Assembly: GCA_009781445.1 (NCBI GenBank)
Contig: WQYD01000003.1
Span: 2,464-66,463, forward strand
DNA from: Bacillota bacterium
GTDB lineage: Bacteria > Bacillota > Clostridia > Christensenellales > DTU072
Direction: 5' to 3'
DNA length: 64,000 nucleotides
In this document: positions 3,845-64,000 of the stretch, piece after piece
Numbering within the stretch: position 1 is the first letter of the stretch
Layout: each line of letters starts with the position of its first letter
Notes under the pieces: generated by a model
Told to the model about the DNA's origin: nothing
The model's database searches: none
The model's input: only the letters and a program-made list of their open reading frames with translations
Program-made: the position numbers and the translations under genes

Positions 3845-4699
3845 ATGAGTTATCAAATTGAACTTGTGTGTAAAATCGGCTCTATGGCACTTATCAATAA
3901 GGCTTACGGCGATGTGGATTATAACATTATCGCAAGGCTTTCGCGTGAATTAAAACCGGGGTATGTTTTGGTTACTTCGGGCGCAACCGAAATCGGGCGG
4001 ATTGATTATTTCAAACGGAACGGCAAAGAACTTGAGGGCGGTTGCAAGGAAGATATTAAAACCGATTATGCCTCTCAAGGGCAAATTGTGCTAATGGAAA
4101 CTTACAGAAGATTTATGAATTCTTCCTATTCCTTGCGCCAATTTTTGGTGGAACACCAACATTTTAATGACGAAAAGAAGCGCGAACACCTTAAAAACGC
4201 ATTGCTTCGTTGCCCTCTCGCCAACGCTGTGCCGATAATTAATTATAACGATCCTGTGAGTGATGAGGAAAACCGCAAACTTGAAATCCGCGCCCTGCGT
4301 GAAAAGCACAGCGGAAAAGCAGTGGCGGAATGCGTGGATAATGACGAAACCGCCTCTGAAATAGCCTGCCTTTTAAAGCCTAAGAACTTAATAATCTTCA
4401 CAGGGGTAGACGGAATTTTTACAAATGTAAACGATCCCGATTCATTAGTGAAAGAAATTTCGGCAAAAACCGCAAGCGAAACGGTGGAAAAAATTAACTA
4501 CTACCAAACCTTTTGCTCAGGCGCAAGCCGTGAGGGCGCAAACGGCGCAGGCATGAAACTGGAATTTATTAAGCAAGCGGTAATAAACGGCACAATCGTG
4601 TTTGTGGCGAACAGCAAATATTCTATTTCGGAAATCTTAAGCGGTGCTAAACCGTGTACGAAGATATTTATCAGCGCACAGCGCACAGTGAAGGAATGA
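3845..4699 (+). CDS. Amino-acid kinase family protein (glutamate-5-kinase-like)
   Basis: KIGSMALIN...VLVTSGATEIGR resembles the aspartate/glutamate/uridylate kinase fold. I prefer the ATG at 3845 over the TTG at 3797. The last residues (SAQRTVKE) and the stop codon lie inside repeat 4672-4804. Confidence 0.45.
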   Translation: MSYQIELVCKIGSMALINKAYGDVDYNIIARLSRELKPGYVLVTSGATEIGRIDYFKRNGKELEGGCKEDIKTDYASQGQIVLMETYRRFMNSSYSLRQFLVEHQHFNDEKKREHLKNALLRCPLANAVPIINYNDPVSDEENRKLEIRALREKHSGKAVAECVDNDETASEIACLLKPKNLIIFTGVDGIFTNVNDPDSLVKEISAKTASETVEKINYYQTFCSGASREGANGAGMKLEFIKQAVINGTIVFVANSKYSISEILSGAKPCTKIFISAQRTVKE

Positions 4700-4804
4700 T
4701 TTATAAGATATTTGATCCACGCCTGTTGCCTATTGCCTAATCAATAATGAGATTTAGAATCCACCATTGTGCGCTGTGCGCTGTGCGCTGTGCGTTGTGC
4801 GCTG
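4672..4804. repeat. Family-1 heptamer-array palindromic element
   Basis: (CAGCGCA)x2.5 - agtgaaggaatga - TTGCCTA-type array - core aataatgagatttagaatccacc - (TGTGCGC)x5. The closest copy is 44863-45015 in the opposite orientation. Confidence 0.9.
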
Positions 4805-4812
4805 AATTAATC

Positions 4813-6756: not shown

Positions 6757-6867
6757 TAGCTATCACAAAAATCCGATTGCGCTTACCTAAGGGGTTTTTA
6801 TCTACGGAAGCGTAACAATGGGTATAGTTGGAAACGGCTATGCCTCCCGTATTGGAAAGGAAGCAAT

Positions 6868-8892: not shown

Positions 8893-9747
8893 ATGAAAAA
8901 ACAACGGTTTTTGCAAGCGTTTAGCGCGTATGATTTGATTTTAATCGCGATGCTTACCGCGCTTGCCGTTGCTTTTAAAGTTGTAGTAAAAATGCTTATA
9001 GGACTCATTGCCACACCCCTCGGAATACCGGGGGGTGCTTTGGCAGGCGGATTTTATATGCTTTGGATTCCGCTTACCGTGGCAATAGTGGGAAAGCGCG
9101 GTTCGGCTTTTTTAATGACATTTGTGCAATGCCTTGTGATAATAATCACCGCCATGCCGGGTAGCCACGGTATTTGGACATTTGCCACATACCTGCCACC
9201 TGCTATTTTGGCGGAAGTGGTTATGCTACGCAGAACGCAGGCAAAGCCTGCGAGAGACGAGAGACGAGAGACGAGAGACGAGATAAGGAATGATAACAAT
9301 ATAATTACGAATGACGACTTACGACTTACGAATGATAGAGGTATCAATGAAGATTTCGCAAATCAAAATTCACCACCTCTCGTCTCTCGTCTCTCGTCTC
9401 TCGTCTCTAATCCCTCACAATACACAGTTCTTCACTTCATATTCGCCTGCATTCTTGCAAACCTTGCGGGGACATTCGGAAGTAACCTGCTATTCTTCCG
9501 CCTAGGGTTTGTGCCGTTGTTTTTTGCAATGTCGGCGGGTGCGTTTTCGGGCGCAATGGGCGGTGTGCTTGGGTATTTGGTTTATAAACTTGTGGCAAAA
9601 TCAGGCATTTTTACTGCACACGCAACGCAGTATAAAAATTATAACGAAGAATCGCCAAGTGAATTCTGTGCGCCGAAAGGTGAAACGCCGTGGGAAGAAA
9701 TGAGTCAGCGCACAGCGCATGAAGATATGAAGACGCTACGCTTGTGA
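8893..9747 (+). CDS. Putative ECF-transporter substrate-capture (S) component, carrying an in-frame repeat insertion
   Basis: Polytopic membrane protein (DLILIAMLTALAVAFKVV...) next to ECF A/T genes. Residues encoded by 9253-9408 come from a palindromic element. The C-terminal tail runs into repeat 9705-9958. Confidence 0.45.
   Translation: MKKQRFLQAFSAYDLILIAMLTALAVAFKVVVKMLIGLIATPLGIPGGALAGGFYMLWIPLTVAIVGKRGSAFLMTFVQCLVIIITAMPGSHGIWTFATYLPPAILAEVVMLRRTQAKPARDERRETRDEIRNDNNIITNDDLRLTNDRGINEDFANQNSPPLVSRLSSLVSNPSQYTVLHFIFACILANLAGTFGSNLLFFRLGFVPLFFAMSAGAFSGAMGGVLGYLVYKLVAKSGIFTAHATQYKNYNEESPSEFCAPKGETPWEEMSQRTAHEDMKTLRL
9253..9408. repeat. Family-1 element inserted in frame in a CDS
   Basis: Perfect 30-bp inverted arms, (GAGACGA)x4 at 9253-9282 and (TCGTCTC)x4 at 9379-9408, flank a centre with an ACGACTT array. 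Near-identical copy at 12556-12708. Confidence 0.9.
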
Positions 9748-9958
9748 AGTGCGCCTTTGGCGCGTGAAGACGCTACGCTTGTGAAGACGGCTTCGCCTTA
9801 TTATGGATAATTATATAAACATTCCGCCACGAAAGCAAAGCAACACTTCACAAGTGAACGATAGACGAACGGCTTCACAAGCGTAGCGTCTTCACAAGGC
9901 GAAGCCGTCTTCACTAAACTTCCACCACTATGCCCGTAGCCCAAACACCTATGCCCTA
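9705..9958. repeat. Family-2 element (GTGAAGAC-word type) with GCGCACA and CTATGCC array remnants at its ends
   Basis: Left arm gtgaagacgctacgcttgtgaagacggcttcgcctt is complementary to right arm aaggcgaagccgtcttcacaagcgtagcgtcttcac. The centre is ...cattcc...gcaaagcaaca. Confidence 0.85.
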
Positions 9959-11920: not shown

Positions 11921-13350
11921 TGGAAACCGTGCTTGAAATTAAAAATTTAACCTTATCTTACGGCGAAAGGATTTTGTGTGAAAACCTTAATTTTAGCGTG
12001 AACGCAGGCGAAATTGTGGGGGTAAGGGGCGGTAACGGCACAGGAAAATCCACCCTGATAAAGCGGATTTCCGCACTTATGCCCGCAAATTTAAACAGTG
12101 AAGGCAGTGTGCTTTTGTACGGTGCGGAAACGCTTGATTTAAACATTAAGGATAGGTGTACCGCCATTGCCACGATTTTCCAAGAACCCGAAGCACAGCT
12201 TTTTTCCTCTTTCGTGGAAGACGAACTTTCCTTTGCAAACGAAAACCTGCGTGTTCAGCGTGAAGAGATAAGAAAAAGGATAAACGCCGTTTCAGAACTT
12301 ACGGGCATTAGCCATTTAACTGATAGCAAATCCGAAAAGCTATCAGGCGGTGAAAAACAGCTTGTGGCAATAGCCTCTGCTATTTCTTCTTATCCGCGCG
12401 TAATCCTCGCAGACGAAATCACCGCACGGCTTGATTTAGAAGCCCGCACAAGAATAAGAACCCTCTTAAAAGATTTTGCCAAAGCAGGCGGTGCGGTTAT
12501 ATTCGTTCACCACACGGAAGAAGACGGGGGGGTTTGTGATAGGGTTATTGAAATTAGAGACGAGAGACGAGAGACGAGAGACGAGATAAGGAATAATAAT
12601 ATAATTACGAATGACGACTTACGACTTACGAATGATAGAGGTATCAATAATGATTCTATAAATCAAAACTCACCACCTCTCGTCTCTCGTCTCTCGTCTC
12701 TCGTCTCTAATCCCCAACAAACAATCGTCCTCAACAACCTTTCTTTCTCATACCTCAAAACTAAAGCCCTGATAAGCAATTTAAGCATGAGTTTTGAAAG
12801 CGGTAAGTGCTATCTTATTACAGGCAAAAACGGTGCAGGGAAAACTACTCTCGGCAAACTTATTTTGGGGCTTTTAAAGCCTCAAAGCGGAAGTGTGGAA
12901 ATCGGCGGTGAGTGCGTGGCTAAAATGCGGATAGGCAGTGTGGCAAAGAAGATAGGTTATGTGTTTCAGAACCCTGATTTGCAGTTTTTCACAAATTCCG
13001 TTGGGGAAGAATGTGAGTTTAGTTTTAAACTTACAAGCGCATTAACCGATAGTGTAAAAGAAAGAATCAATGATTGTTTAGTTAAGTTTGGGCTACAAGA
13101 CTTTAGAGAACGGAATCCCTTAACGCTGTCTACAGGCGAAAAGCAAAGGCTTGCCCTTGCCATAACTTCTTTAAGCGGTGTTAGTTTTTTATTGCTTGAC
13201 GAACCCACTTCTTCTCTTGATAATGAAGCTAAAAACTTTGTGGTTGATTATATTAAACGCTTTGTGGCGGACGGTGGTGGCGCGATAATTATCACGCATG
13301 ACAGCACGCTTTTAAGCCACTTGCCAGAGGGGGTAATTTATGAAATTTGA
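11920..13350 (+). CDS. ECF/ABC transporter ATPase, fused duplicated NBDs (EcfA-EcfA'), with in-frame repeat insertion in the linker
   Basis: Two Walker A sites (GGNGTGKST, GKNGAGKTT), two signatures (LSGGEKQ, LSTGEKQ) and Walker B motifs (ILADE, LLLDEP). TAATG overlap with the upstream gene. Confidence 0.85.
   Translation: METVLEIKNLTLSYGERILCENLNFSVNAGEIVGVRGGNGTGKSTLIKRISALMPANLNSEGSVLLYGAETLDLNIKDRCTAIATIFQEPEAQLFSSFVEDELSFANENLRVQREEIRKRINAVSELTGISHLTDSKSEKLSGGEKQLVAIASAISSYPRVILADEITARLDLEARTRIRTLLKDFAKAGGAVIFVHHTEEDGGVCDRVIEIRDERRETRDEIRNNNIITNDDLRLTNDRGINNDSINQNSPPLVSRLSSLVSNPQQTIVLNNLSFSYLKTKALISNLSMSFESGKCYLITGKNGAGKTTLGKLILGLLKPQSGSVEIGGECVAKMRIGSVAKKIGYVFQNPDLQFFTNSVGEECEFSFKLTSALTDSVKERINDCLVKFGLQDFRERNPLTLSTGEKQRLALAITSLSGVSFLLLDEPTSSLDNEAKNFVVDYIKRFVADGGGAIIITHDSTLLSHLPEGVIYEI
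12556..12708. repeat. Family-1 element inserted in frame between the two ATPase domains
   Basis: Same 30-bp GAGACGA/TCGTCTC arms as 9253-9408. It differs by one 3-nt indel and a few central substitutions, and is translated in the same frame. Confidence 0.9.
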
Positions 13351-17030: not shown

Positions 17031-17205
17031 GTATGATGTGCGCCTTTGGCGCATGATGATATGATGACGCTACGCTAATGATGGGCGGGCAAGCCCGCAT
17101 GAACTGATTTAATTTAGCATTCCTTAATGTTGCGAAGCAACACATCATAAGGCGAAGCCGACATCATACCATCATAAGCGAAGCGACATCATAAGCGCAC
17201 GCGCC
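17031..17205. repeat. Family-2 element (ATGATG-word type)
   Basis: Left half has ATGATG words separated by GC-rich mini-palindromes. The conserved centre is gggcgggcaagcccgcatgaactgatttaatttagcattccttaatgttgcgaagcaaca. The right half has CATCAT words. Confidence 0.85.
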
Positions 17206-20534: not shown

Positions 20535-20546
20535 ACGCATTATGCA

Positions 20547-24065: not shown

Positions 24066-27000
24066 TTATCTACGCGGTGAACGGCTGTAACGGCGTCCTG
24101 CGTGAGTTCTGTCTTTCCGCTTGAAAATCATGCTAAAGAAGAACAGAATGATTAACAGCGCAACACCGCCGATTGCAAACCCAAGAACATAATTCATATA
24201 TTCAGGCATTTCAGGAATCCTTAATCCGCCCACGCTTATGGAACGCACAGGGATATAATTCTCTGAATCAAAGTTCTCGCCTGCAAACAGCACCTCAACC
24301 ACAAACGCTTGGTTCGCGCTTATGCCGTTAAACACATTACTGCTTTGCCCCGGTGCAATTTCATTGCCCTCCAAATCAATCAATCTGTACACAGTGCCTG
24401 CGGGCGCATTGGTTGAAATAACATGGATAGTACCGTCCTCATTTCTTGTTACGCGGATATCAATATTAAATTCTGCCCTGTTTATAGTTAGAATTGCACC
24501 TATGCGGGCAACCTCAAAGCCGTAGTGCATTATAACAGCGGTAACATCGTATTGCCCTGCGTTCACTGGGAATGTGGTAAGCTGAAGCCCGTCCGACATT
24601 CTTATAAAGCTATAGTAAACCGATACGCCCTCTTGGGTAAAGCCTTGCGGTTGCGAACCGAAGTTCACTGCCCCTGGGGATTTCGCATTGCCGTCATACA
24701 CATATTCTGCGTCCCCCACAACTATTGCATTGAACGCATTGGCGGTAATCCTCAATGTGGTTGTTACCGTTTCAAATGTGTAGTTATCCGCCACTATTGA
24801 AAGCACGAATTCGTAATCACCAAGAAGCGTGGGGTTAGCTTCGCTTCCGTCTTTATAATAATTGGTAAACACTGTGATATTCTCAATATCGTTTCCGAAC
24901 AGCCCCAATATATTATATGTTGCTTGCTTAGCCGTACCGCTGTACTTGTGTTCAAGCCCTGCGATTGACGCGGTAAGAATTGCTTTAAAGATTTCAAAGT
25001 GGAACATGGTTTCGCCGTCATAGCTATAGTTTCCGAATTCGTCTTCAAAGCTGATAACCACAATGTATTTGCCTGCACCGCTTGCGTTTTCCACGATTTC
25101 ATAACCGCTTGGCACGCTGATTCCGAATGCGCCCCCGCTTGCGTTTTTGGGTGCGGGATTTCCTGCATTTACATATGTTTCACGCATGAAAATCATATGC
25201 GGAATAACCTTATAATCTTCGTCATACTGCGCAAATAAATTGATATTTGCGTTACCGCCGTTGAAGCTTAATTCGCTAATAAATTCTTCTTTTAGTTCCA
25301 CTTCGCGTGCGTGAATATCAAAGGAATAAGCGTAAACCTCAGTGAGTTCGCTGTTAGGATTTTGAAGCCTTACTTCCACGCTGTAAGTTCCCACATTACG
25401 CACTTGGCTTACTGGAATCTCATTTCCGTTTCTAAAGTACACGAATATTAAATCGCTTGAAATTTCCTCACCGCCGTCAAAAGCGAATGCTTTTAAGGTT
25501 TGCGTAAGCGCGCCGATTCCGTTTTCTTTTGCAGAGAACTGGAATGTTTTTCCGTTAGGCGCGTCCGATTCGTCAAGCACAGCTTCCGCCCTGCTTATCG
25601 TAAATGTTATGCCCGAAACCACGAAGGGGTGAATTGTGTTAGGCGAAGAAACGGTGAACGAAACAACGAAACTTCCTGCGCCCCTAATTTCCTTACCGCC
25701 TAAATCTGCCACGAACGATAAGCCGTGCGCATTGGGCAGGTTGGTTATTACAGGGGTTGTGATTTCGCCGTTGTACACCCTTGTGGCGTTATTGAATAAA
25801 AGTTCGGCTTGCAAGAAGTCCTCTGTGTACATTGCCCTTGCAATCACGAACACCGCGCTTAGCCCTGCGCTTGGCATTTCAAAATTAGAATCGTTTACCA
25901 CAAGGTTAACCACATATTCGCCTGCGTTCACGGGGACTACTTGGGTGCTTAAATCGTCTGAACGGAAGAAGTATTTTTCTAAATCCGCAACGGTGAAGCC
26001 GTTTCCTTGGGCATCTTTAAATAAGAAGGAAGCAATGTAATGCTTGCTTAGCCCGTCATACACCACCGCGTTTCCAGTTGCCTCTGCAAGGCTTAAAGCC
26101 CTTGGCATAACAACGATTTCAAAAGCGGTTTCGCTTAACTCATAATATGCGTTTGCCAAGGTGTTAAGGCTTAAGGTAACCAAGTACGCGCCTGCGTTCT
26201 TAACCGCGCTTGCAACCGCGCCGTTAAGCCTTATATCCTTATCAATAGTAAGGGCAACGCCACTTACAACAGGGAATGCTTGTGTGGAAGCCACCACTTC
26301 AAACTCTTCGCCAGAGTAAACGAACTGCGTGCTTGAAGTAAGTGAGGACTGAACCAAAATCTTGCTTATATAAATAAGGATACTAATATTAGCTGAGGAC
26401 GCGTCAAGCAACACATTACCGCCAACCACATTCACGGTTATGGCGTTTGCACCCACGCTAAGAGGTTGGTTGCTTATGAATCCGCCGAACTGCGTGCTTG
26501 CAATAAAGCTGTTCACAATGAATGCGTTATCAGGGAATAAGGAATTAAGAACTGAGTTAATCTCTTCCGTAATACCGCCTTGGAACGCGCTAAACGATGC
26601 AAGATATTCCACCCTTTCGCTTTCGCCGATTGAGATATCAATGCTAAAGTTTTCCACCGTAAACGGCGCAACATTTAGCGTGATTACATATGTTGCATTG
26701 TAATAAACACTGTTTTCATTGAGGCTTAAAGCGAACAAATCGTTATAGCTGTTCACGGTTAATTCATTAAGATTTACACCGCCGTTTGGTTGAAAGATTA
26801 GCCCCTTACTTGCAAAGTTAGCCTCTGCCCTGTTCACGGCAAATGCTCTGCCAAGTTCGTCAATATCATTTATATCAAGGGTATCCGTGCTAACGCTTTC
26901 CACGGTGTAATCACTTAAGGAATAAAGTTTTGAAAGCTCAATTTCCGCAAGCACATTAGCACGGCGCATTGTAAGCGTTACGGATAAATCCGCCACCTCA

Positions 27001-30000
27001 TAGTTAGAAGCCAAGCCGTTTAACATTGCGTAAGGGTTATTATCAAAATCGTTTTCCTTATTGAAATCAATTCTGAATTCATAGCCCACACCGCTGATAA
27101 ATTGAAGCTGTGTAACCGAAAGCGTGATTAAACCAAGTGCCTCAGAGGGCTTAACGAAATCACTTGCATTAGCATGAAGAACATATGCGGAAGCACTTGA
27201 GAAATCATTTCCGCCTGCTGTGTAATTGATTACCGCACCGCTGTTAACCGCGCCACCGCCAAAGAAGTTTATGGAAACAGGCAGGTTCTTTTTTGTAACC
27301 TCAAACACATATTGGGGAACTGCCGAAGCCACCACATAGTTCACGCTTGCAAAGCCTGCCGAATTGGCTACATATGCAAGGGTGTAAGAATCTGCATTAA
27401 GATATTCGTCATTAAGCGGAACGGAAACACCGAAGCCGTTTCTTAAAGTAAGCCCAAGCCTTATTAGGCGGTTATCCGTTTCACCCACCACAAGCTGTTC
27501 GCCGAACAAATTAAGCGCGTTGATTTCGGCTATCGTCATGCTTTCAAAGTCAAGATCCACCGAACTTGCGCGCATACTTCCGTACTCGTTTTGAAGGTTC
27601 GCAAGCCTGCTTAAGTTAAGCGTGAGTTGCCTCGGGCGGATTTGCACCACAAGCCTATTGCCGTTTGCAAGAAGCAAATAGCTTCCGATTGCCTCAATGT
27701 TATCTATATCATAATTCCTTTGCGCGCTTAAATAATTTATGCTTGCAAAGTAGTCGCCCACATCACCAAGAGTTCCCGCGCCTATTCTCTCAAGATTCAC
27801 TTCCACCGTGCTTCTAACTTCTGCACCAGCGGGAAGGTTCGTAACATTTGCGCCACCGTTAAACACGCTGAAATCATTTAACGCGCCAAGTTCGTCATAG
27901 GTAAGGGCGAATGTTCCGCTGTAATTTATGCTTAGAAGCAAGCGCAGAATCTCAATTGGGAAACTGCCGATATCAAGCGCAAAATTAAAGTTTTGGCTTT
28001 GGTTTGCGCCTGCTTGAAGCGACCAGAAATAGTTGCCTGCGTTCACTGCCTGCACGCCGTTTTCGTCCGAAGCCGTAACGGTAACGCCTGCAAAATACCC
28101 TGCCACATAAGTGCGCAAGTTGCCCTCAACTATATTTCCGTTTAAGTATACTTCATATGAAAGTGCGGTTAAAAGCCTTGTGATTACTGCGCCTGTGTAG
28201 TTCGCGCTGTTAGAGGTTGAACCTATAGCAATGTCTATTGTAATCGCTTCAATTACATATGTTAACACCACATTGCCGAAGCTATAATTGGCTACAGTTT
28301 CGTCACTTAAATTAACCGTGTAAATGCCTGCGTTTCTAAAGCCCACAGCGGTTATATTATCACCCGCGGGATTCTTAAATTGATACGCGCCTTGCAACAC
28401 ATTGTATATACCTGCGCTGTCCTTTGAATTATCCCATGCGGTAACGCCAAGCATTTCATAATCATTAAGCACGATATATCCGCTTGCGTCAAACGCACGG
28501 CTGAATGCTGTTTTGCTGAACGATACAGCGCGCCTTGTGATTGAGAGTGCGCCGTTCACAAACGAAATATTATAGTTATCCGAAGTGAAACCGCCTATGC
28601 TGATTACATATGAATCACCCACCGCACTCTGTTCGTTTGCGCTAAGGATTTGGATATTTAGAGTACCGCCTAAGTCTTGATAAGTGTCCTCACCAAGTAA
28701 CGAATCGCCGATTGAAGTTCTGAAAATTACATTGCTAATGCTTAAAGAAGGATTAGCTTCACCGTACACACGGCTTATGTTTTTGGCTATAACTTGAAGC
28801 GAAGCAGGGGTTATTATTTTTGTTTCTGTAAGCCCCGAAACCGCAAGCTGATAGTTATCATTGCTTGGTGCGTTAAAGCCCGTTACGGTTAATGTGTGCG
28901 TTCCCACATTCCTAAAATCATTTTGTTCTTGCGTAACAAAGGAAACAACTTCGCCGTACGCAGCGGCTAAAGGAAGGGCAACAGGGTTAAATTTTACACC
29001 CGAATAAACCGCCGTTTCAAAACCGCTGAACGAAACGGTAAGAGTGAATTTGGTAACGGTGAGCGTACCGCCCACAAATGCAATATCATAGTTTGGTGAA
29101 GAAACACCGTCCACGATAATCTCATATTCCGCCACATTTAAATGCCCCGTTTCGGCAAGCCTTGCGTTAAGCGTGCCACTTAGAACAGAGGCATTTTCGC
29201 CCTGTGCAAACGGTGAGAATCCATATGAAAAGCTTGGCGTTCCGCCGTAAACCATGGCGATGTTATCTGCCCTTACGGTTAATGCCATGGGGGCAATGTT
29301 CCATGTTACTGAAAGATCAAAAACACTGATTTCATATAGGTTTGTGGTTTCCGCACTTATGGTTGTGGTGTGCGTTCCTGCGTTTCTTGCGCTTGCATTA
29401 ACTAATTGAATTATATCGCCGTTAACGGTTGCACCGCTTATTGAAACAGTCTTATCTTCGTTGCTGTAAATTGCGTTTTGCGGTAGTAGCCAAGTAACAT
29501 TTAGGTTTCGTTTATTTACAGTTATGGTTGAACCTGAAAACAGAATGTCATAATTATCTGAAGTCAGCCCGCTTACCGTAACAGGATATGTGCCGGGTAC
29601 GGAACGCGCGTCAGCCACGGTGGAAATAACTAATTTACTGTTAGTTGCCGTTTCCACAGATTCTATTGTTTGCCCCCCAACCAATCCGCTAACGCTATAT
29701 TGCAGTACGGGGTTAGGATTGCCGTACTGTCTGCTACCGGCAGGATTGGCTTGAATTGATAGGCTTGCCCTGTTGATTACATATGAAATTTCGTCCACGG
29801 AAGGAATTTCGTAATTATTGCGATCCGATAAATCAATAACTTTTGCAGTGTATGTTCCTGCGTTTATTGCACTTCCGCCCGAAACGGTGGTGGTGATTGT
29901 TTCGCCGTTTGCAGGGTTGGTAACAGTGGCGGTAACGCTAACCGGCCCACCGATATAAGTAAGCCCTGTATGCCCGTTCCATTGAAGCCCTACCACGCGT

Positions 30001-32327
30001 TTGGTAATTGTGATTGTGCCTGTGGGGAAAGAGATATCATAGTTGTTAGACGAGAATCCGCTTGGGGTAACCACGCGCTGAGAACCTGCCACGGTGGTTG
30101 TGGTGGCATCGTGTGCATAGCTTATTGAACCGCTGAGGACACTAACCGTTTCGCCGTTCACAAAACCGCTTGCGGTGTAGCCAAGCATGCTTGCATTAAA
30201 ACTGCCGTAATCAGTGGTTACATTGTTTGCCCTTATCGTGAGAGGCGCAGGGAAGATTGACCATGTTTCAGAGGTGTTACCCATAACCACATTGTACCTT
30301 GTGAGGGTGGTTTGGATTATGGAAGCGGTGTAACCCCCTGCGTTCGTTTCGGTGTTTCCCGAAAGCAAAATGCTATCACCGTTCACAAGGTTGGTGCTTG
30401 ACGCGGTAACCGTTTGAGGCACGCCTGTGTAAAGCGCGTAACCATTCCCCGGTTTGTGCCATGTAACGCTTATGCTTCTTCTTTCTATCGTGAGTTGCGC
30501 GTTGGTGGTTGAAATTTCATAGTTGCCCGAAGTGAGGGAATTAACCGTTATTGTGTAAGTCCCCGGTAAATCCGTAACAGTCGCATTTGTGGTTGCGCCG
30601 TGCGTTCCCCAACCGGTGAGAACCGTGCTTGCTTGTTCGCCGTTCACCAGCCCGGTAACCGTTAGGCTTGGGGCAGGGTTGGCGTCACCGTATTGGCGGG
30701 ATTGGTTTCCTGCCACCACTGAAAGCGTTGCCCTTGTTATGTTCCATGCTTGGGAAGAGTTAGAGGGTAACGCATAGTTAGAATTTTGAATAGTTGCCGA
30801 AGCGGTATAGCTTCCCACATTGGTTGCCTTAGTGTTAGCAAAACTTACCACGCTTGCTTGGCTTGCACCAAGTAAGCCCGACACGGTAGGTTCATGCGTT
30901 TGTTCCACACCCGAATAGGGGCGCGAACTGCTTGGCCACGAAAAAACTAAAGGCGCAGGGTTTATGGTGAACGCATAGTTTACCTCACCTATCGTGGTAC
31001 TGCTACCATTCCTCAGCACCGCCCGCAGTCGGTAACTGCCTGCATTTGTGGGGGCGGTAACACCTATGTTCGTGCCTGCCGAATTTTGGTAATACGGCGA
31101 GGTAGACCAAGCTACCCCTGTGGGCAGTCCCCCCCCGCTTGGCAAGGTTACAGTAGGCCCTTGCGCCGAACCGCTGAATGTGTACGAACTACCGCCCGAA
31201 ATTGTAAAAGATACGAAGTTTGCAGTAAGTGTGATTGCCCTGCCGTTATAGCTTACCTCACCTGCAATTGAGGGGGTTAGCGTGGGGCTTGCGTTGCTTA
31301 TATAGGTTGCACCTGTAATGTTTGCAGACCAATCTCTAAAGTAATAGTTAGCGTTAGGGCTTGCGGTGTTTGCAAGCATACCAGTAGTGCCGTTAGACGG
31401 AAGCGTAACGGCAAGGCTTGTTCTTGTAAGAGAACCGCCCGCACCGCCTGCCGCACCGTTAGTGGTGATGCCATAGGTGTGCGTTGAAGCGCTGTAAGTC
31501 CATGTAATTGTAACGCTATTTACAGTTAGATTCGCATAAACCCTCGCCCTGCTTCCGCCTGCTGAACCTGAGTTGCAGGTTGCGTGCTGATAGGATTGGT
31601 ATTCAAGGCGGATACCCGTCATGTTAGTTGCTGCGGCAAAGCTCGCAGTGTTGCTATTTCTTGCGCCGGTATTTGAGCCGGTAAAGGTGGTTGTGCCACG
31701 GCTTGTAACTGTGCCACTTACATTAGAGTATATTTCTGACCAGCCTTCGTATCTGCTCCCGCCACCAGTGCTTCCGCTTATAGAACCGCTCCATATGCCG
31801 TTTGTAACCACAGATATATTGGTAATCTTGCCACTAGATATTGCACGCAAAACATCCCCTGTAAATGTAATGTTATATTGGAATCTGAGCATTGCGTGCG
31901 CCCTTTTATCATTACCTGCGATAACCGCCTTGTAATCTGATTCCATATCCGCTGTCCAACCGCCTCTTACTGTGGAGTTTGACCAGCTTGCACCGGGAGT
32001 CCCGCCGGCATCTATATTCACCACATGGAGTGCGTTGCTACTTGGGGCTGCGTTGGGAATATTTGTGCTTCCGTTGTTGTTACCAGAACGGTTACCCGAA
32101 AGATCATGGTTCATACGGCGGTTATTATGGCTATTATTATTGTTATCCCTGCCGTTCCACCCAGGTAAAGCGGCATCTGCCGATTCAATAACTTCTCTAT
32201 CAAAAATTGCAGGGGCAAGCCGTCCAAGGCTGAACACCCCCATGGTAAATAACAGCGTAAAGCAAATAAACAGCCCTAAGCCAAGCAGTAAATATGCTGA
32301 TAATCTTCTTTTTGTGTTTGTTTTCAT
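24066..32327 (-). CDS. Giant cell-surface repeat protein (MBG-domain-like repeats), 2753 aa
   Basis: N-terminal signal/anchor and an Asn-rich segment. At least a dozen repeats carry YG..NP.L.....G.VNGE...L.G...GTY.I......S.NY.I.F..G.L.I. C-terminal TM (FAIGGVALLIILFFFSMIF) plus a basic tail; AGAGGTGA RBS. Confidence 0.85.
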   Translation of the reverse strand: MKTNTKRRLSAYLLLGLGLFICFTLLFTMGVFSLGRLAPAIFDREVIESADAALPGWNGRDNNNNSHNNRRMNHDLSGNRSGNNNGSTNIPNAAPSSNALHVVNIDAGGTPGASWSNSTVRGGWTADMESDYKAVIAGNDKRAHAMLRFQYNITFTGDVLRAISSGKITNISVVTNGIWSGSISGSTGGGSRYEGWSEIYSNVSGTVTSRGTTTFTGSNTGARNSNTASFAAATNMTGIRLEYQSYQHATCNSGSAGGSRARVYANLTVNSVTITWTYSASTHTYGITTNGAAGGAGGSLTRTSLAVTLPSNGTTGMLANTASPNANYYFRDWSANITGATYISNASPTLTPSIAGEVSYNGRAITLTANFVSFTISGGSSYTFSGSAQGPTVTLPSGGGLPTGVAWSTSPYYQNSAGTNIGVTAPTNAGSYRLRAVLRNGSSTTIGEVNYAFTINPAPLVFSWPSSSRPYSGVEQTHEPTVSGLLGASQASVVSFANTKATNVGSYTASATIQNSNYALPSNSSQAWNITRATLSVVAGNQSRQYGDANPAPSLTVTGLVNGEQASTVLTGWGTHGATTNATVTDLPGTYTITVNSLTSGNYEISTTNAQLTIERRSISVTWHKPGNGYALYTGVPQTVTASSTNLVNGDSILLSGNTETNAGGYTASIIQTTLTRYNVVMGNTSETWSIFPAPLTIRANNVTTDYGSFNASMLGYTASGFVNGETVSVLSGSISYAHDATTTTVAGSQRVVTPSGFSSNNYDISFPTGTITITKRVVGLQWNGHTGLTYIGGPVSVTATVTNPANGETITTTVSGGSAINAGTYTAKVIDLSDRNNYEIPSVDEISYVINRASLSIQANPAGSRQYGNPNPVLQYSVSGLVGGQTIESVETATNSKLVISTVADARSVPGTYPVTVSGLTSDNYDILFSGSTITVNKRNLNVTWLLPQNAIYSNEDKTVSISGATVNGDIIQLVNASARNAGTHTTTISAETTNLYEISVFDLSVTWNIAPMALTVRADNIAMVYGGTPSFSYGFSPFAQGENASVLSGTLNARLAETGHLNVAEYEIIVDGVSSPNYDIAFVGGTLTVTKFTLTVSFSGFETAVYSGVKFNPVALPLAAAYGEVVSFVTQEQNDFRNVGTHTLTVTGFNAPSNDNYQLAVSGLTETKIITPASLQVIAKNISRVYGEANPSLSISNVIFRTSIGDSLLGEDTYQDLGGTLNIQILSANEQSAVGDSYVISIGGFTSDNYNISFVNGALSITRRAVSFSKTAFSRAFDASGYIVLNDYEMLGVTAWDNSKDSAGIYNVLQGAYQFKNPAGDNITAVGFRNAGIYTVNLSDETVANYSFGNVVLTYVIEAITIDIAIGSTSNSANYTGAVITRLLTALSYEVYLNGNIVEGNLRTYVAGYFAGVTVTASDENGVQAVNAGNYFWSLQAGANQSQNFNFALDIGSFPIEILRLLLSINYSGTFALTYDELGALNDFSVFNGGANVTNLPAGAEVRSTVEVNLERIGAGTLGDVGDYFASINYLSAQRNYDIDNIEAIGSYLLLANGNRLVVQIRPRQLTLNLSRLANLQNEYGSMRASSVDLDFESMTIAEINALNLFGEQLVVGETDNRLIRLGLTLRNGFGVSVPLNDEYLNADSYTLAYVANSAGFASVNYVVASAVPQYVFEVTKKNLPVSINFFGGGAVNSGAVINYTAGGNDFSSASAYVLHANASDFVKPSEALGLITLSVTQLQFISGVGYEFRIDFNKENDFDNNPYAMLNGLASNYEVADLSVTLTMRRANVLAEIELSKLYSLSDYTVESVSTDTLDINDIDELGRAFAVNRAEANFASKGLIFQPNGGVNLNELTVNSYNDLFALSLNENSVYYNATYVITLNVAPFTVENFSIDISIGESERVEYLASFSAFQGGITEEINSVLNSLFPDNAFIVNSFIASTQFGGFISNQPLSVGANAITVNVVGGNVLLDASSANISILIYISKILVQSSLTSSTQFVYSGEEFEVVASTQAFPVVSGVALTIDKDIRLNGAVASAVKNAGAYLVTLSLNTLANAYYELSETAFEIVVMPRALSLAEATGNAVVYDGLSKHYIASFLFKDAQGNGFTVADLEKYFFRSDDLSTQVVPVNAGEYVVNLVVNDSNFEMPSAGLSAVFVIARAMYTEDFLQAELLFNNATRVYNGEITTPVITNLPNAHGLSFVADLGGKEIRGAGSFVVSFTVSSPNTIHPFVVSGITFTISRAEAVLDESDAPNGKTFQFSAKENGIGALTQTLKAFAFDGGEEISSDLIFVYFRNGNEIPVSQVRNVGTYSVEVRLQNPNSELTEVYAYSFDIHAREVELKEEFISELSFNGGNANINLFAQYDEDYKVIPHMIFMRETYVNAGNPAPKNASGGAFGISVPSGYEIVENASGAGKYIVVISFEDEFGNYSYDGETMFHFEIFKAILTASIAGLEHKYSGTAKQATYNILGLFGNDIENITVFTNYYKDGSEANPTLLGDYEFVLSIVADNYTFETVTTTLRITANAFNAIVVGDAEYVYDGNAKSPGAVNFGSQPQGFTQEGVSVYYSFIRMSDGLQLTTFPVNAGQYDVTAVIMHYGFEVARIGAILTINRAEFNIDIRVTRNEDGTIHVISTNAPAGTVYRLIDLEGNEIAPGQSSNVFNGISANQAFVVEVLFAGENFDSENYIPVRSISVGGLRIPEMPEYMNYVLGFAIGGVALLIILFFFSMIFKRKDRTHAGRRYSRSPRR

Positions 32328-32341
32328 AGTTCACCTCTTTT

Positions 32342-32470
32342 TCAGCGCGAAGCGCACAATGGTGGTTTTTTTAATAATGATATTTAGAATCCTTCTCGTT
32401 TCATGTTTCTCGTTTCATGTTTCTCGTTTCATGTTTCTCGTTTCACACGCTACGCATACGCGTAGCGCGC
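32342..32470. repeat. Family-1 element with 14-nt tandem repeat, in the 5' leader of the giant gene
   Basis: cagcgcgaagcgcacaatggtgg - core taataatgatatttagaatcc - (TTCTCGTTTCATGT)x4 - hairpin cgctacg..cgtagcg. Confidence 0.85.
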
Positions 32471-43448: not shown

Positions 43449-43568
43449 TGTGGGTTAGCTTGCTGTGCCGTTACTTTGCCACGGGTTTCACCCGTGGTTA
43501 TGCACATTGCGCCCCCTTGGGTTTCACCCAAGGTTATGCATATCCTGCCCACTACGGGGCAGTTGCGG
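43449..43568. repeat. Family-3 hairpin-cluster repeat
   Basis: gtgtgggttagcttgctgtgccgt...ccacgggtttcacccgtggttatgca...ccttgggtttcacccaaggttatgca...ctgccc..gggcag. Homologous block at 60112-60205. Confidence 0.8.
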
Positions 43569-50297: not shown

Positions 50298-51392
50298 ATG
50301 GATTTTTATAATCAGAAAGAACAGCTTAAAGAATATTTAGCGTCCTTAAGAACTTCAGAGGACGCGCTTAATGTTTCCGCGCTTAACGCGGAACTTTCCG
50401 CAATTAAAATTAAGCAGGAAAATCCTGACTATTGGCAAAATGCAGACGAAGCGAAAAAGGACGGGCAAAGGCTATCCTTCATTGAAAAAAAACTTGGCGC
50501 GGTGAGTGCGCTTAATGAAAAAATTAAGTACCTTAGCGAACTTTTTGAACTTGCCGAACTAATGCAGGATAATGAAGTTAAAGCGGAAGCGGATTCGCTT
50601 TTGGTTGAGGTGGGAAAAGAAAGCGAAGCGTTGTTTTTGGAAACGCTTATGAACGGAAAGTACGATAATTTAAACGCAATTTTAAGCCTGCACGCAGGCG
50701 CAGGCGGTACGGAAGCGCAGGATTGGGCAGAGATGCTTTACCGAATGTATTCCCGCTATGCAGAACGCGCAGGATTTATAGTTACAGAACTTGACAGGCT
50801 TCAAGGGGACGAGGCAGGCATTAAAAGTGCCTCGTTCTTAATTTCGGGAAACAACGCGTATGGGTTCCTAAAAGCCGAGAAAGGGGTACACAGACTGGTG
50901 AGAATAAGCCCTTTTGATTCCAATAAAAGAAGGCACACTTCGTTCGCTTCTCTTGAGGTTATGCCCGAAATTTTGGATAGTAATGAGATAACCATTAACC
51001 CAGAAGAACTAAGGATAGACACCCTTAGAAGCGGTGGCGCAGGCGGACAGCATGTGAACAAAACCGAAAGCGCAGTGCGGATTACCCACCTGCCCACAGG
51101 CATAGTAACCCAATGCCAAAACGAACGATCTCAAATCCAAAACCGCGAAACCGCCATGAAAATGCTGATTTCCAAGCTAACCGAAAAGCGCGAAAGAGAA
51201 CTGCTTGAAAGAGATCAAAGCATAAAGGGCGACATTAAAAAAATTGAATGGGGTTCACAAATCCGTTCGTATGTCTTTTGCCCTTACACCCTCGTAAAAG
51301 ATCACCGCACCGCCTACGAAAACACAAATGTGGGTGCTGTTATGGACGGGGACATTGAGGGGTTTATTTTTGATTATCTTAAAAGAGTTTAG
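50298..51392 (+). CDS. prfB: Peptide chain release factor 2
   Basis: SPF tripeptide (RISPFDS), GGQ (SGGAGGQHVNKTESAVRITHLPTGI) and 364 aa as a single uninterrupted ORF. Confidence 0.9.
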   Translation: MDFYNQKEQLKEYLASLRTSEDALNVSALNAELSAIKIKQENPDYWQNADEAKKDGQRLSFIEKKLGAVSALNEKIKYLSELFELAELMQDNEVKAEADSLLVEVGKESEALFLETLMNGKYDNLNAILSLHAGAGGTEAQDWAEMLYRMYSRYAERAGFIVTELDRLQGDEAGIKSASFLISGNNAYGFLKAEKGVHRLVRISPFDSNKRRHTSFASLEVMPEILDSNEITINPEELRIDTLRSGGAGGQHVNKTESAVRITHLPTGIVTQCQNERSQIQNRETAMKMLISKLTEKRERELLERDQSIKGDIKKIEWGSQIRSYVFCPYTLVKDHRTAYENTNVGAVMDGDIEGFIFDYLKRV

Positions 51393-51611
51393 TGAAGACG
51401 GCTACGCCTTATGAAGTCGCGTGCGCTGCACGCTTGTGAAGACGGCTACGCCTCATGAAGACGCTACGCTTATGGAGCGCGGGCGCGCCCGCATGAACTG
51501 ATTAAATTTAGCATTCCTTCATGTTGCAAAGCAACACTTCACAAGTGAACGAAGTGAACGACTTCACAAGCAAACTTGTTTGCGTCTTCACGCGCAAAAG
51601 GCGCACTTCAT
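51393..51611. repeat. Family-2 element (GTGAAGAC/ATGAAG-word type)
   Basis: Left words are gtgaagac/atgaag plus GC-rich mini-hairpins. The centre is gcgcgggcgcgcccgcatgaactgattaaatttagcattccttcatgttgcaaagcaaca. Right words are cttcac. Confidence 0.85.
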
Positions 51612-59918: not shown

Positions 59919-59986
59919 GTACGAAGTACGAATTAAGGATTAATTCAGAATTAAGAATTCAGAATGCAGAATTGTGGATTAATTCC
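59915..59986. repeat. Family-1 fragment (GTACGAA and CAGAATT arrays), overlapping the kinase stop codon
   Basis: gtaagtacgaagtacgaattaaggattaattcagaattaagaattcagaatgcagaattgtggattaatt. Confidence 0.85.
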
Positions 59987-60232
59987 TAACAGAACCCCGC
60001 AGGGGTGAAATGTGCATAACCCCATGCAAGCGGTAGCGAAGCTTGGGGTAAGGCAAAGGAATGTGGGTAGCAACACAAAACCCACCTTTCTGCCATTGGC
60101 AGAAAGGTGGGTTTTGTTTGTGTAGGTTAGCTTGCCGTACCGTCCTTAGCCACGGGTTTCACCCATGGTTATCCAAATTCTGCCCGCTTGGGGGCAGTTA
60201 CGGATTTTTCCATAATTTGTACTTCATAATTC
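59987..60232. repeat. Family-3 hairpin-cluster repeat (includes a bidirectional terminator)
   Basis: Shares ggtgggttttgtttgtgt[a/g]ggttagcttgc.gt.ccgt...ccacgggtttcaccc.tggttat...ctgccc..gggcag with 43434-43560. Extra left part has gcaggggtgaaatgtgcataacc. Confidence 0.8.
60081..60120. terminator. Bidirectional rho-independent terminator between convergent genes
   Basis: 14-bp stem cccacctttctgcc / ggcagaaaggtggg with a 3-nt loop, an A-run before it and TTTTGTTTG after it. Confidence 0.7.
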
Positions 60233-61670: not shown

Positions 61671-63299
61671 ATGAAATTAAATTATGTTAAAACTATTAAA
61701 GTGGGCATAGCATTTGCTATTTGCATGGCATTTTGGACGACTTATAACTTCGCAATGCCCCTGCTTCTTGAAAATGCTTACGGATTTTCAAATACCTTAA
61801 GGGGTTTGATTATGGGCGCGGGTAGCTTTATCGGGCTTATTCTTTTGCCTATATTCGGCAAACTTTCGGATAACACAAAAGGCAAGGTGGCAAGGTTCGG
61901 CAAAAGAACGCCTTACATATTTATAGGCACAATCGTAACGGTTTTGCTTATGGCGTTTGTTCCGCTTTCGGCAACTTCGCAACTAAATAAAGCGGTTGAT
62001 TTAAGAAAAGAGATTACAAATACGGCAGTTGAGGGATATTCGTATACGGACAGCAAAGGAAAAACTTATAACAACGCAAGCGAACTTTACACAATGATTT
62101 ACGAAAAAGGCGCGGAAAATTCAGACTATGCGGATTACGCATATTTAAAAAACAACGGCATTGATTCCTTAGCCAAGTACCTTGCTATTGCAGAAAACCC
62201 AAGTTCGGGGGATTACGATAAGTTCGTGAAAACAGGCATAAACACTTACGCAAGCGATGAAGTTTTTGAAAAGCTAACCAAAACCAACGGTGGCGGTGTG
62301 GCGGGGTTTATGGTGATTTTATTCTTCGCGCTTGTGGCGGTGGCAACCTTTAGAAGCCCTGCCGTTGCCCTCATGCCCGATGTTACCCCCAAACCTTTAA
62401 GAAGCCCCGCGAACGCAATAATCAACCTTGCAGGGGGGCTTGGCGGTGCGCTTGCTTTCATAATTTACACGGCGGTTTTCCTATTTAACCCCACGGGGTA
62501 CACCCTTGTTTTCGGGCTTACTGCGGGGGTTATGCTAATTTTGCTTGCGCTTTTTGTGAAATTCGTTAATGAACCGAAAATGGTTAAGGAATGTGAGGAT
62601 TTATGCCTTGAATATAACTTAACTGACGAAGAAGAACAAAAAGCAGAAAGTGAGAACAGCGAACTCATATCCGCAGACGCAGGGCAGGACACAAAGAAAC
62701 GCGCAAAACTTGTTTCGTTTTGCTTGATTCTTGCGTCCATTTTCATGTGGTTTTTGGGATACCAAGCGATAAACGCGAACCTATCCATATATTTAACCAA
62801 AACGCTGAACATTGAACCGGGGTTCGGCGGAATAATCACAGGGGTTTCTATGGGAATATCCGCAGTGGCGTTTATCCCAGTGGGAATGCTTGCAGGGAAA
62901 ATCGGCAGAAAGAAATCAATTATAATAGGATTCTTTTTGGCACTCGTTTCATTTATATTGATTTTCTTCTTTGCTTCCGCGCCTGTAACCGCGGTTGCCG
63001 TTCTGTTTACCGCGTTCTTCTTGATTTCGGGATTCGGCATGATAATTGCGAATGTGAACACTTTCCCTATGGTTGTGGAACTTTCAGATAAAAAAAGCAT
63101 AGGAAAATACACTGGGCTATATTACACCGCAACTATGAGTTCGCAAGCAATAACCCCCTTTATTGCAGGGCTTATTATGGATAGGTGGGGCAATAAATTT
63201 ATGTTTCTTTACGCAGTGTTCGCAATCGCGGTGGGAATTGTGCTAATGATGCTTGTGAAGCATGGGGATAGTAAGCCTGTACCAAAAAGCAACGCATAA
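61671..63299 (+). CDS. MFS transporter (GPH/SLC45-like) with a large hydrophilic insert
   Basis: ATG at 61671 preceded by GGAGG. GKLSDNTKGKVARFGKRTPYIFIG motif, and an insert of about 115 aa after the early TM helices. Confidence 0.7.
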   Translation: MKLNYVKTIKVGIAFAICMAFWTTYNFAMPLLLENAYGFSNTLRGLIMGAGSFIGLILLPIFGKLSDNTKGKVARFGKRTPYIFIGTIVTVLLMAFVPLSATSQLNKAVDLRKEITNTAVEGYSYTDSKGKTYNNASELYTMIYEKGAENSDYADYAYLKNNGIDSLAKYLAIAENPSSGDYDKFVKTGINTYASDEVFEKLTKTNGGGVAGFMVILFFALVAVATFRSPAVALMPDVTPKPLRSPANAIINLAGGLGGALAFIIYTAVFLFNPTGYTLVFGLTAGVMLILLALFVKFVNEPKMVKECEDLCLEYNLTDEEEQKAESENSELISADAGQDTKKRAKLVSFCLILASIFMWFLGYQAINANLSIYLTKTLNIEPGFGGIITGVSMGISAVAFIPVGMLAGKIGRKKSIIIGFFLALVSFILIFFFASAPVTAVAVLFTAFFLISGFGMIIANVNTFPMVVELSDKKSIGKYTGLYYTATMSSQAITPFIAGLIMDRWGNKFMFLYAVFAIAVGIVLMMLVKHGDSKPVPKSNA

Positions 63300-63317
63300 T
63301 GCGGGGCATTATGTGTT

Positions 63318-63476
63318 AGGCCATAGGCCATAGGGCATAGGCCATAGTAATTGAATTTTCTAATTCAGAATTGTGGATTAAATAATAAATTGAATTTTCT
63401 AATTCAGAATTGTGGATTAAATAATAATGAGATTTAGAATCCACCCCTATGCCCTATGCCCTATAACCTATGCCCT
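63318..63476. repeat. Family-1 element with GGCATAG/CTATGCC arms and a 39-bp internal tandem duplication
   Basis: aggccataggccatagggcataggccatag ... 2 x (aattgaattttctaattcagaattgtggattaaataata) ... tgagatttagaatccacc - cctatgccctatgccctataacctatgccct. Confidence 0.9.
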
Positions 63477-63477
63477 C

Positions 63478-64000
63478 TTATAAATCATAATACTTCTTAA
63501 ACTCAATCGGGTGTGGCATCATGTTAACTTCTTCTGCGTCTTTTCTTAATTTTTTAAGCTGACTTGTGATTAGTTCTTTGCTGAAAACACCGCCGTTTAA
63601 TAAAAACTCGTGATCTTTTTCTAATGCGTCTGCGGCTTCGTCTAAAGATTTGGGAAGAGATTTAACGGTTTTCTTTTCTTCCTCTGTGAGGTTGTACATA
63701 TTTTTATCATAAGGCCCGAAACCGAGTGCAGTGGGGCAGGATTTCTTTTGAATGCCGTCTATCGCCGCCATTGCTATTGCCGAAAAGCAAAGATAAGGGT
63801 TGGCGGTGGCATCTGCGGGGCGGAATTCAAAGCGTTTGTCCTCTGGTTTAATTGCGTACCCCGGGATTCTTATAACGCTACTGCGGTTGGCAGTGGCAAA
63901 GCAAATTGTTACAGGGGCTTCATACCCCGGGACAAGCCTTTTATACGAATTTGTGGAAGGGCAACAAAACGCGGTAAGCGCAGAGGAATGTTCTAAAATT
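63478..64000 (-). CDS. glnA: Glutamine synthetase type I, C-terminal part (gene continues beyond right edge)
   Basis: The frame stays open to the window end. It reads ...CCPSTNSYKRLVPGYEAPVT... and a C-terminal ...LPKSLDEAADALEKDHEFLLNGGVFSKELI...PHPIEFKKYYDL. Confidence 0.85.
   Translation of the reverse strand, partial: ILEHSSALTAFCCPSTNSYKRLVPGYEAPVTICFATANRSSVIRIPGYAIKPEDKRFEFRPADATANPYLCFSAIAMAAIDGIQKKSCPTALGFGPYDKNMYNLTEEEKKTVKSLPKSLDEAADALEKDHEFLLNGGVFSKELITSQLKKLRKDAEEVNMMPHPIEFKKYYDL

Follow-up and report, generated by a model that had tools for sequence, protein, structure and literature searches.

The window analyzed in this work, a 64,000-nucleotide stretch of contig WQYD01000003.1 from a Bacillota bacterium of the order Christensenellales, contains at positions 63295-63477 a variant copy of a heptamer-based repeat, whose sequence is that given in an initial annotation of the same DNA. 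This copy occupies the entire gap between two convergent genes, one encoding an MFS transporter (end 63299) and the other being glnA, which encodes glutamine synthetase and has its stop codon at 63478-63480 on the - strand. Our results on balance favor the view that it belongs, as a diverged copy, to a lineage-specific family of mosaic, non-coding palindromic repeats in the genome of an uncultured Clostridia-class bacterium, and that an origin of these repeats as inverted doublets followed by recombination accounts for their arms better than selection on structure does.

The family was analyzed in the 64-kb window plus a 7.6-kb extension taken from an ENA contig (L001), i.e. in 71.6 kb, where about 23 elements make up 4.7% of the DNA. 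When every array was aligned on its nearest WTCC, about 55 arrays lined up as WTCC, 5 nt, and heptamers. The common module, of about 60 nt, consists of an A/T-rich prefix, either in a long form (ATGAGATTTAGA) or in short AT-rich forms, a WTCC head, a 5-nt spacer, usually four heptamers in fixed register, and T(G)AAW. Most arrays have exactly four units, and this applies across at least 10 heptamer types. The long prefix with its head (AATGAGATTTAGAATCCACC, up to 3 mismatches) was matched 18 times in the 64 kb versus 0.00 matches expected. Modules were termed U when the head lies on the 5' side on the + strand and R when they are reversed, and modules no more than 130 nt apart were taken as neighbors. 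The 42 adjacent module pairs thus defined comprised 19 RU, 12 RR, 11 UU, and no UR pair (P < 1e-5 versus shuffled orientations), and therefore each cluster has a single center to which all heads point (R^a U^b). Entire element types were found in both orientations, e.g. those at 20545 and 54726 and those at 4672 and 44881. Moreover, the order of variant units was kept across distant copies (e.g. TCTGCAT-TCTGAAT-TCTTAAT-TCTGAAT in five of them), which indicates that the arrays were copied as blocks and are not free-slipping microsatellites.

When read according to these rules, the copy under study and its immediate surroundings were resolved into the following features.

63291-63313, - strand: terminator-like small hairpin (stem 63313->63295 and tail CGTTGCTTTT in the terminator scan; 12-bp stem in the fold)
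63318-63346, + strand: left arm, the array of an R module, with units TATGGCC, TATGCCC, TATGGCC, TATGGCC, and T (- strand, from the center outward)
63349-63387, + strand: first 39-nt unit, a short R module (Tandem Repeats Finder period 39, 100% matches)
63388-63426, + strand: second 39-nt unit, exact tandem duplicate of the first
63427-63447, + strand: right (U) module, with the long prefix ATGAGATTTAGA at 63427-63438, the head ATCC at 63439-63442, and the spacer ACCCC at 63443-63447
63448-63476, + strand: right arm, the array of the U module, with units TATGCCC, TATGCCC, TATAACC, TATGCCC, and T

The modules of the copy follow the order R-R-R-U, the outer R and the U module carrying TATGGCC/TATGCCC and the two inner R modules being the 39-nt duplicates. 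Tandem Repeats Finder detected period-7 arrays at 63317-63347 (TAGGCCA, 4.4 copies) and 63445-63476 (CCCTATG, 4.6 copies), and 26 of 30 positions were identical in the best ungapped match of the left arm with the reverse-complemented right arm, in agreement with the proposal of the initial annotation that heptamer arms flank the center of this copy. The arm units had been given there as GGCATAG/CTATGCC; the arrays are present, but their exact complementarity is not, the majority left unit being GGCCATA (reverse complement TATGGCC) versus TATGCCC on the right, with a mismatch in three of the four heptads. The right-arm string quoted for the copy was, in addition, one base shorter than its coordinates. 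The head of the left-arm module is decayed (ATTC-AATTAC where ATCC-ACCCC is expected), the 20-mer AATGAGATTTAGAATCCACC of the right module is matched exactly at 63426-63445, and the right arm stops 1 nt short of the glnA stop codon.

The exact 39-nt tandem duplication reported for 63349-63387 and 63388-63426 was confirmed both by Tandem Repeats Finder (period-39 repeat at 63349-63427, 100% matches) and by direct comparison of the two identical 39-mers. In module orientation, and compared with the other AATTCAG modules of the window (family D2/D6), the 39-nt unit is composed of the prefix TATTATTTA, the head ATCC, the spacer ACAAT, a single heptamer TCTGAAT, and T. Each 39-nt unit is therefore a complete short R module, and the internal duplication corresponds to the tandem duplication of one module.

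Regarding the arms, comparison with all other left and right arms of the window gave values of 0.40-0.71 only, and the initial annotation had described them as entirely different. This description does not withstand comparison in register. The arms share the module architecture and register of the family, the unit TATGCCC is 5/7 identical to the standard unit TGTGCGC, and a near-identical inner module exists elsewhere, i.e. the head and spacer of the right module (ATCC-ACCCC) are one base apart from those of the inner module (ATCC-ACGCC) of the copies 4672/44881 (at 4721/44941). TGTTGCC/TATTGCC are the units of that inner module; a single substitution separates TATTGCC from the left-arm unit TATGGCC, and the arms overall are 1-2 substitutions away from it. 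The copy also has the center variant GGATTAAATAATAATGA, which is shared only with the element across glnA at ~65000-65100. A single-step mutational network of the heptamers (rotation allowed) was not clearly above random (6 merges, P = 0.046; largest component, P = 0.12), and the relatedness of the heptamers is read from the in-register comparisons only.

The initial annotation had interpreted the copy, together with the copies at 9253, 12556, and 40532, which do exist as described, as a case of arm-level covariation that could be checked against shuffled pairings. This check was carried out on 19 elements of the 71.6 kb and revealed an excess of matched arms, since the outermost arrays were matched in 14 of them versus 6.3 +/- 1.6 under shuffled pairing, and none of 20,000 shuffles reached 14. 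Four arm types are each present as a complementary pair, namely CAGCGCA, CGAGAGA, AATTCAG, and TAGGCCA/CCCTATG. Matching beyond shuffled pairing was thus substantiated, but not every element shows complementarity, with unmatched outer modules in five to seven of those in 72 kb, and only four arm types are involved. Because copies of a family are not independent, the matched arms represent at most four arm-type events. Within the copy, each arm has been homogenized to its own variant (G versus C at one position), which leaves two C.C and two C.A mismatches; these arm-specific variants are the result of drift after a common origin and not of compensatory maintenance. For the standard arm type, the similarity of arms within an element did not significantly exceed that between different elements (trend, P = 0.07), and variant patterns did not cluster by genomic neighborhood (P = 0.37).

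For the + strand of the copy, the predicted minimum free energy was -69.2 kcal/mol (z = -6.8), and for the - strand it was -74.6 kcal/mol (z = -7.6); 0 of 200 dinucleotide shuffles folded as well. With its arms matching at 26/30 and these z values, the copy has the arrangement of an inverted doublet of a repeat unit forming a hairpin, as in REPINs and in bacterial interspersed mosaic elements (BIMEs) made of repetitive extragenic palindromic (REP) sequences. The small hairpin at 63291-63313 is context and lies outside the repeat; it overlaps the MFS stop codon (TAA, 63297-63299), has its T-run on the - strand and, on that strand, is positioned after the element. It is also the only structure at the locus (63313->63295, - strand) that fits the pattern of a G+C-rich hairpin plus a U-tract, and the long hairpin of the copy is followed by a T-run on neither strand. 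Since the glnA stop codon is on one side of the copy and this terminator-like hairpin on the other, the copy is probably transcribed as a 3' untranslated region that, according to the predicted fold, would be able to form a long imperfect stem-loop. Hairpins of the family are typically flanked 5' by T-rich and 3' by A-rich sequence (the 3' flank of the copy being CTTATAAATC), and canonical terminator hairpins adjoin several elements. The flanks without a 3' U-tract and the separate terminators alongside indicate that the long hairpins are not themselves intrinsic terminators. Window-wide terminator scans gave barely more candidates than shuffles, and hence the idea that elements lie beside terminators derives from a few strong cases only.

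Comparison with related loci indicated that the elements are insertions rather than ancestral sequence. Three relative loci (SerRS 70-72% identity, MFS 62% identity; 61 kb) contained no arrays and no heads, versus 45 arrays and 16 heads detected by the same comparison in the 71.6 kb studied here, and the gap between the SerRS gene and the next gene, which is 4-6 nt in the relatives, is here ~200 nt wide and contains an element of ~190 nt. The 92%-identical copies located in frame within two unrelated proteins (described below) point in the same direction. The closest SerRS and MFS relatives share only 72% and 64% identity and bear the names Clostridia, Christensenellales, or Christensenellaceae, and the MFS protein of the locus is identical to NCBI MCL2630078.1.

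According to the explanation that we favor, the elements would originate and propagate as inverted doublets of a single module, in a REPIN-like manner, and a birth of this kind would make the two arms complementary from the outset. Heptamer types would change by point mutation and then be homogenized within each array, and ectopic or unequal recombination together with slippage at the conserved heads and linkers would swap arms, add inner modules, and generate tandem module duplications such as that of the 39-mer. Recombination at these sites would keep the convergent grammar and yet yield unmatched arms. As to the copy at 63295-63477, its arms may descend from the 'GCC' module type (TGTTGCC/TATTGCC), which is an inner module elsewhere, and would since have diverged to 26/30. 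Its persistence would not require the fold, and it would behave as neutral or selfish DNA whose influence on mRNA 3' ends, if any, is secondary. Whereas the initial annotation had left the choice between selection and a generating mechanism acting on the secondary structure, a generating mechanism fits the data better, and selection on structure fits less well given the unmatched elements that persist and the drift of the arms.

Several observations weigh against this explanation. Neither a transposase, RAYT, insertion sequence (IS), nor other mobilizing gene was found when the genes of the window and of its flanks (72 kb) were inspected, and no consistent target-site duplication was seen at the element borders. 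Uncompensated mismatches between arms, when all matched-arm elements were considered, comprised 10 A.C on the + strand (G.U on the - strand) versus 1, a bias that a neutral model does not predict. The matched arms in 14/19 elements and the z values of -4 to -13 of all 15 matched elements folded are a result that structural selection would also produce. Finally, the near-constant length of four units across unrelated heptamers is unexplained by drift and recombination, and hints at a constraint, be it a ruler for array length, the footprint of a protein, or a mechanism dedicated to synthesis. With respect to the features of MITEs, which are miniature transposable elements with inverted repeats, the outer arms represent terminal inverted repeats, the flanks are T-rich 5' and A-rich 3', and neither a consistent direct duplication at the borders nor an IS in the 72 kb was seen.

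The alternative that retains most weight, even if we regard it as unlikely, is that the elements are functional RNA or single-stranded DNA hairpins under structural selection, in which case any pairing heptamers would suffice and the hairpins might act as 3'-end stabilizers, RNase III sites, or bidirectional terminators between convergent genes. In agreement with it, the 15 matched-arm elements all fold far better than shuffles, including the copy under study, and matched arms are more numerous than under shuffled pairing. Among intergenic elements, about 19 of 20 are positioned downstream of one gene or more, only one being located between divergent genes; the arm mismatches are mostly of the G.U type on the - strand; and some variant units are mirrored in both arms, e.g. 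at 22860 and 54726. However, the four unmatched elements at 22050, 37700, 50016, and 65001 fold no better than shuffles (z ~0 to -3) and nevertheless keep the full module anatomy. Furthermore, the unmatched type AATTCAG...GTTTCTC, present twice in the window and its extension, was found again in an unrelated JGI contig (L055) of different G+C content, i.e. in another organism. The divergence of the copy's own arms to arm-specific variants with C.C mismatches, the lack of a 3' U-tract at the long hairpins, and the presence of separate canonical terminators beside several of them also argue against structural selection. The - strand fold is the more stable one in most elements irrespective of the direction of the flanking genes, even when these are on the + strand. 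Neither the G.U versus A.C asymmetry nor the strand-specific fold energies track gene direction, and the GC skew of the window did not indicate the replication strand. As only four arm types are available and copies are related, there is no independent covariation. In addition, no family of Rfam 15 matched the repeat at the gathering threshold, the only match in the 64 kb being a Moco riboswitch at 6762-6876.

A more speculative proposal, to which we assign a low probability, is that the modules are the footprint of a new process that writes or copies four heptamers beside a WTCC head, in convergent arrangement only and with arms that become complementary automatically, and that the same process lies behind the Xanthomonas arrays and the inverted Nostoc arrays discussed below. 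Candidates may be head-primed slippage or template-switch synthesis, or a dedicated recombinase or transposase. If true, such a process would account for the recurrence, in different phyla, of heptamers and of arrays with about four units.

It is improbable, although some features point to it, that the modules are polar protein-binding platforms, each with a head plus four 7-bp sites, whose convergent clusters would serve as roadblocks, nucleoid-protein sites, or recombination sites, complementarity being a by-product. The WTCC head and the palindromic GATT-N3-AATC of the long prefix are conserved in sequence and not in structure, facing heads have 5-nt spacers with little complementarity, the orientation is strictly convergent, and the four-unit length is maintained regardless of the heptamer, in parallel to the mode of the Xanthomonas GGGAATC arrays (PMC4692102). 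But the heptamers differ so widely that a single sequence-specific array binder is unlikely, a 7-bp spacing is unlike the helical repeat, and no candidate protein was identified.

A highly improbable interpretation, and one largely refuted by the present data, is that the arrays are ordinary heptanucleotide microsatellites of the short tandemly repeated repetitive (STRR) type, generated by replication slippage in place and only incidentally inverted. According to PMC4679880 (citing Mrazek 2007) and PMC4692102, the long simple repeats of many bacteria are most commonly heptanucleotide repeats, which are intergenic, and the copy does consist of head-to-tail heptamer arrays in non-coding DNA, as simple sequence repeats and STRRs do. 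Lone arrays of the same heptamers also occur in unrelated plasmids; BLAST of the element and nine synthetic arrays against plasmids detected (CCTATGC)n in an Oscillatoria plasmid and (TCTGAAT)n from Oscillatoria/Nostoc plasmids, which was the sole TCTGAAT match. These plasmid arrays, however, were all lone arrays without head or partner. In contrast to free-standing arrays of slippage-variable length, those of the window are anchored in fixed register to the conserved head and prefix, have mostly four units with a variant order conserved between dispersed copies, follow an absolute orientation grammar (0 UR in 42 pairs), and belong to complete elements that recur in both orientations.

Finally, the notion that the 39-nt duplication, or the whole odd copy, was mis-assembled from repeat-rich reads is barely credible, in spite of a genome full of near-identical modules and of a k=31 unitig that breaks within the element. 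An independent ENA assembly contig (MEGAHIT-style k141, L001) is base-for-base identical to the window, including the duplication; the duplicated stretch, at 78 nt, does not reach the length of the final k-mer that the k141 contig names imply, and hence would be spanned by single k-mers or reads; and the arms are unique in the window, and hence could not be borrowed from another copy. Logan contigs are built with k=31, and the first recurring 31-mer starts at 63349 and returns at 63388 with a different predecessor, so that a k=31 de Bruijn graph must branch at 63378 if the duplication exists. The Logan contig L002, which comes from another run (SRR10512954), terminates at window position 63378, i.e. 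at the branch point expected for a real duplication in a second sample. The identical ENA contig and the break at the predicted position make an assembly artifact very unlikely.

Some elements of the family are located within or at the borders of genes. The copies 9249-9420 and 12554-12720, with CGAGAGA/CTCTCGT arms and 92% identity to each other, lie in frame within two unrelated proteins, i.e. a membrane protein with a weak ABC_cobalt match and a tandem ABC ATPase, in which the insertion lies in the linker between the two ATPase domains. Both add the same peptide (RDERRETRDEIRN..NIITNDDLRLTNDRGIN..NQNSPPLVSRLSSLVSNP), of 53 and 52 residues, with a one-codon indel between them, and in both only one of the six frames is open, which is that of the host. 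The CGAGAGA/CTCTCGT arms carry no stop codon in any + frame, and therefore arm type can correlate with context. At 4672-4806, the open reading frame (ORF) of an amino-acid kinase (end 4699) enters the left arm of the element, which supplies the final codons of the gene, and the stop codon is the TGA of the linker (CAGTGAAGG). Heptamer modules are also found directly upstream of the start of an ORF of 2753 residues (24066-32327, - strand; Pfam MBG_2). A lone U module at 32372-32449 contains seven units that strictly alternate GTTTCAT and GTTTCTC (exact 14-nt period, 3.8 copies); no other array of the window is as long, and this one departs from the four-unit rule.

The closest published analog of the family is that of the convergent four-unit GGGAATC arrays of Xanthomonas (PMC4692102). 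In Xanthomonas campestris and X. citri, four units are the commonest array length (Rehm et al. 2015, PMC4692102), there are 70-75 convergent two-array cases per genome on opposite strands, and 89-93% of the arrays are intergenic; they are found near the 3' end of the ORF upstream of them and rarely between divergent genes (PMC4692102). The family described here has the same four-unit mode and the same convergent pairs, which are intergenic and located just downstream of ORFs. In contrast, a single G-rich heptamer, read via its G-quadruplex potential, is involved in Xanthomonas, whereas at least 10 types are found here, and most of the units (TATGCCC, TGTGCGC, TCTGAAT, etc.) lack a G3 tract and cannot form a G-quadruplex. 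The four-unit rule therefore cannot be a G-quadruplex effect in this family. A further difference is that the arrays of the Bacillota family, unlike those of the Pseudomonadota genus Xanthomonas, are each attached, in register, to a head and prefix that are conserved, and that their modules combine into mosaics.

BIMEs are higher-order mosaics with specific linkers. Both REPINs and BIMEs resemble the present elements in being short extragenic inverted doublets with a long hairpin, assembled into mosaics with linkers and present in many copies. REPINs are REP doublets that form hairpins, and singlets and odd arrangements have been read as decayed or rearranged doublets (PMC3116915). Nevertheless, the REP arm is conserved and tied to the RAYT transposase, whereas here the conserved part across the family is the inner head plus prefix, or linker, and the arms are tandem heptamers that vary (four outer types). 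No RAYT partner such as that of REP elements was seen in the 72 kb examined.

Cyanobacterial STRRs and the TAACTGA-type repeats of Beggiatoaceae, Cyanobacteria, and Bacteroidetes are dealt with in passages of PMC4679880 and, as regards Mazel 1990, of PMC4692102. They resemble the present family in that they are intergenic tandem heptamers of several types that are sometimes mixed in one spacer. However, no conserved WTCC head or prefix stands beside the cyanobacterial arrays inspected, the array lengths vary widely, and the TAACTGA repeats are mostly placed just upstream of start codons, unlike the repeats of the window. Rickettsia palindromic elements (RPEs) are palindromic and can sit in frame in genes without breaking them. 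The in-frame copies 9249-9420 and 12554-12720 are similar in this respect, but RPEs have no sequence relationship to the family and are not heptamer arrays, and the copy under study lies between genes, every one of its six frames being closed by stop codons. A review of RPEs is available (PMC10969869). The BOX elements of Streptococcus pneumoniae are modular and contain an internal module in variable tandem copy number. The BrickBuilt MITE of Porphyromonas gingivalis is likewise a modular small repeat (PMC4596501). A variable tandem number of an internal module is common to BOX, BrickBuilt, and the present elements; in the former two, the modules are of 23-45 nt, the outer modules are conserved in sequence, and a convergent multi-module grammar is not described. 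Among the other classes considered, an integron attC site was rejected on the basis that no R''/R' cores (RYYYAAC ... GTTRRRY) are present at the borders and the neighbors are housekeeping genes in mixed orientation, and CRISPR, retron, riboswitch or attenuator, and IS200/IS605 ends were also rejected.

The origin and function of heptanucleotide repeats, which are abundant in many bacteria, are still unexplained, and the family described here offers an unusually legible case of them, with a fixed head and register, a four-unit length, an absolute orientation rule, many heptamer 'alleles', and in-frame copies. It shows that the four-unit preference of Xanthomonas does not need G-quadruplexes, since the preference holds here for heptamers that cannot form them. 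It also gives a testable view of how arms may change sequence while staying paired, i.e. through birth as an inverted doublet followed by recombination at the linkers. In practical terms, such elements account for ~5% of the genome region, break short-k assemblies, and extend or fuse ORF calls.

Searches beyond the window extended these comparisons. A scan of metagenomes with the exact 20-mer detected one true relative, the JGI contig L055, and one chance match. A genome collection was screened with a 17-base degenerate head pattern, which is too short for specificity, and the 52 loci obtained were all chance matches except for an incidental Nostoc locus. No match to the repeat was found in a scan of viral sequences, and a literature search for the exact arm and head sequences returned nothing relevant. 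The incidental locus, in Nostoc calcicola FACHB-3891 (L017, 4090-4390 and 5220-5400), contains (AATTCAG)n...(AATTCTG)n and AGGCAACAGGCAA...(GCCTGTT)n, inverted around intergenic hairpins; its heptamers are the same as those of the Clostridia window and lack the WTCC head.

Other repeats and signals were observed in the window. The molybdenum cofactor riboswitch (RF01055, 57.7 bits) at 6762-6876 lies upstream of an ORF that faintly matches Oxidored_molyb. Units of ~36 nt (CCACGGGTTTCACCCGTGGTTATGCACAT) make up a second repeat family, which is present at 43474-43557, 59974-60061, and 60145-60192. These units form small hairpins whose outer stem bases vary and yet stay complementary (CCACGGG/CCCGTGG, CCTTGGG/CCCAAGG), they adjoin strong terminators and heptamer modules, and they also occur twice in the JGI contig L055 (439-544 and 4074-4156) with 87-90% identity. 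A third repeat is a 91-nt sequence found at 17061-17151 and 51455-51545 (87% identity), near which there are tandem repeats of 17-25 nt (GACGCTACGCT..., AAGGCGAAGCCG...; 9728-9914 and 17143-17193). The junction of the two ENA contigs that cover the window (~51346-51350) is located ~100 nt from one of the 91-nt copies.

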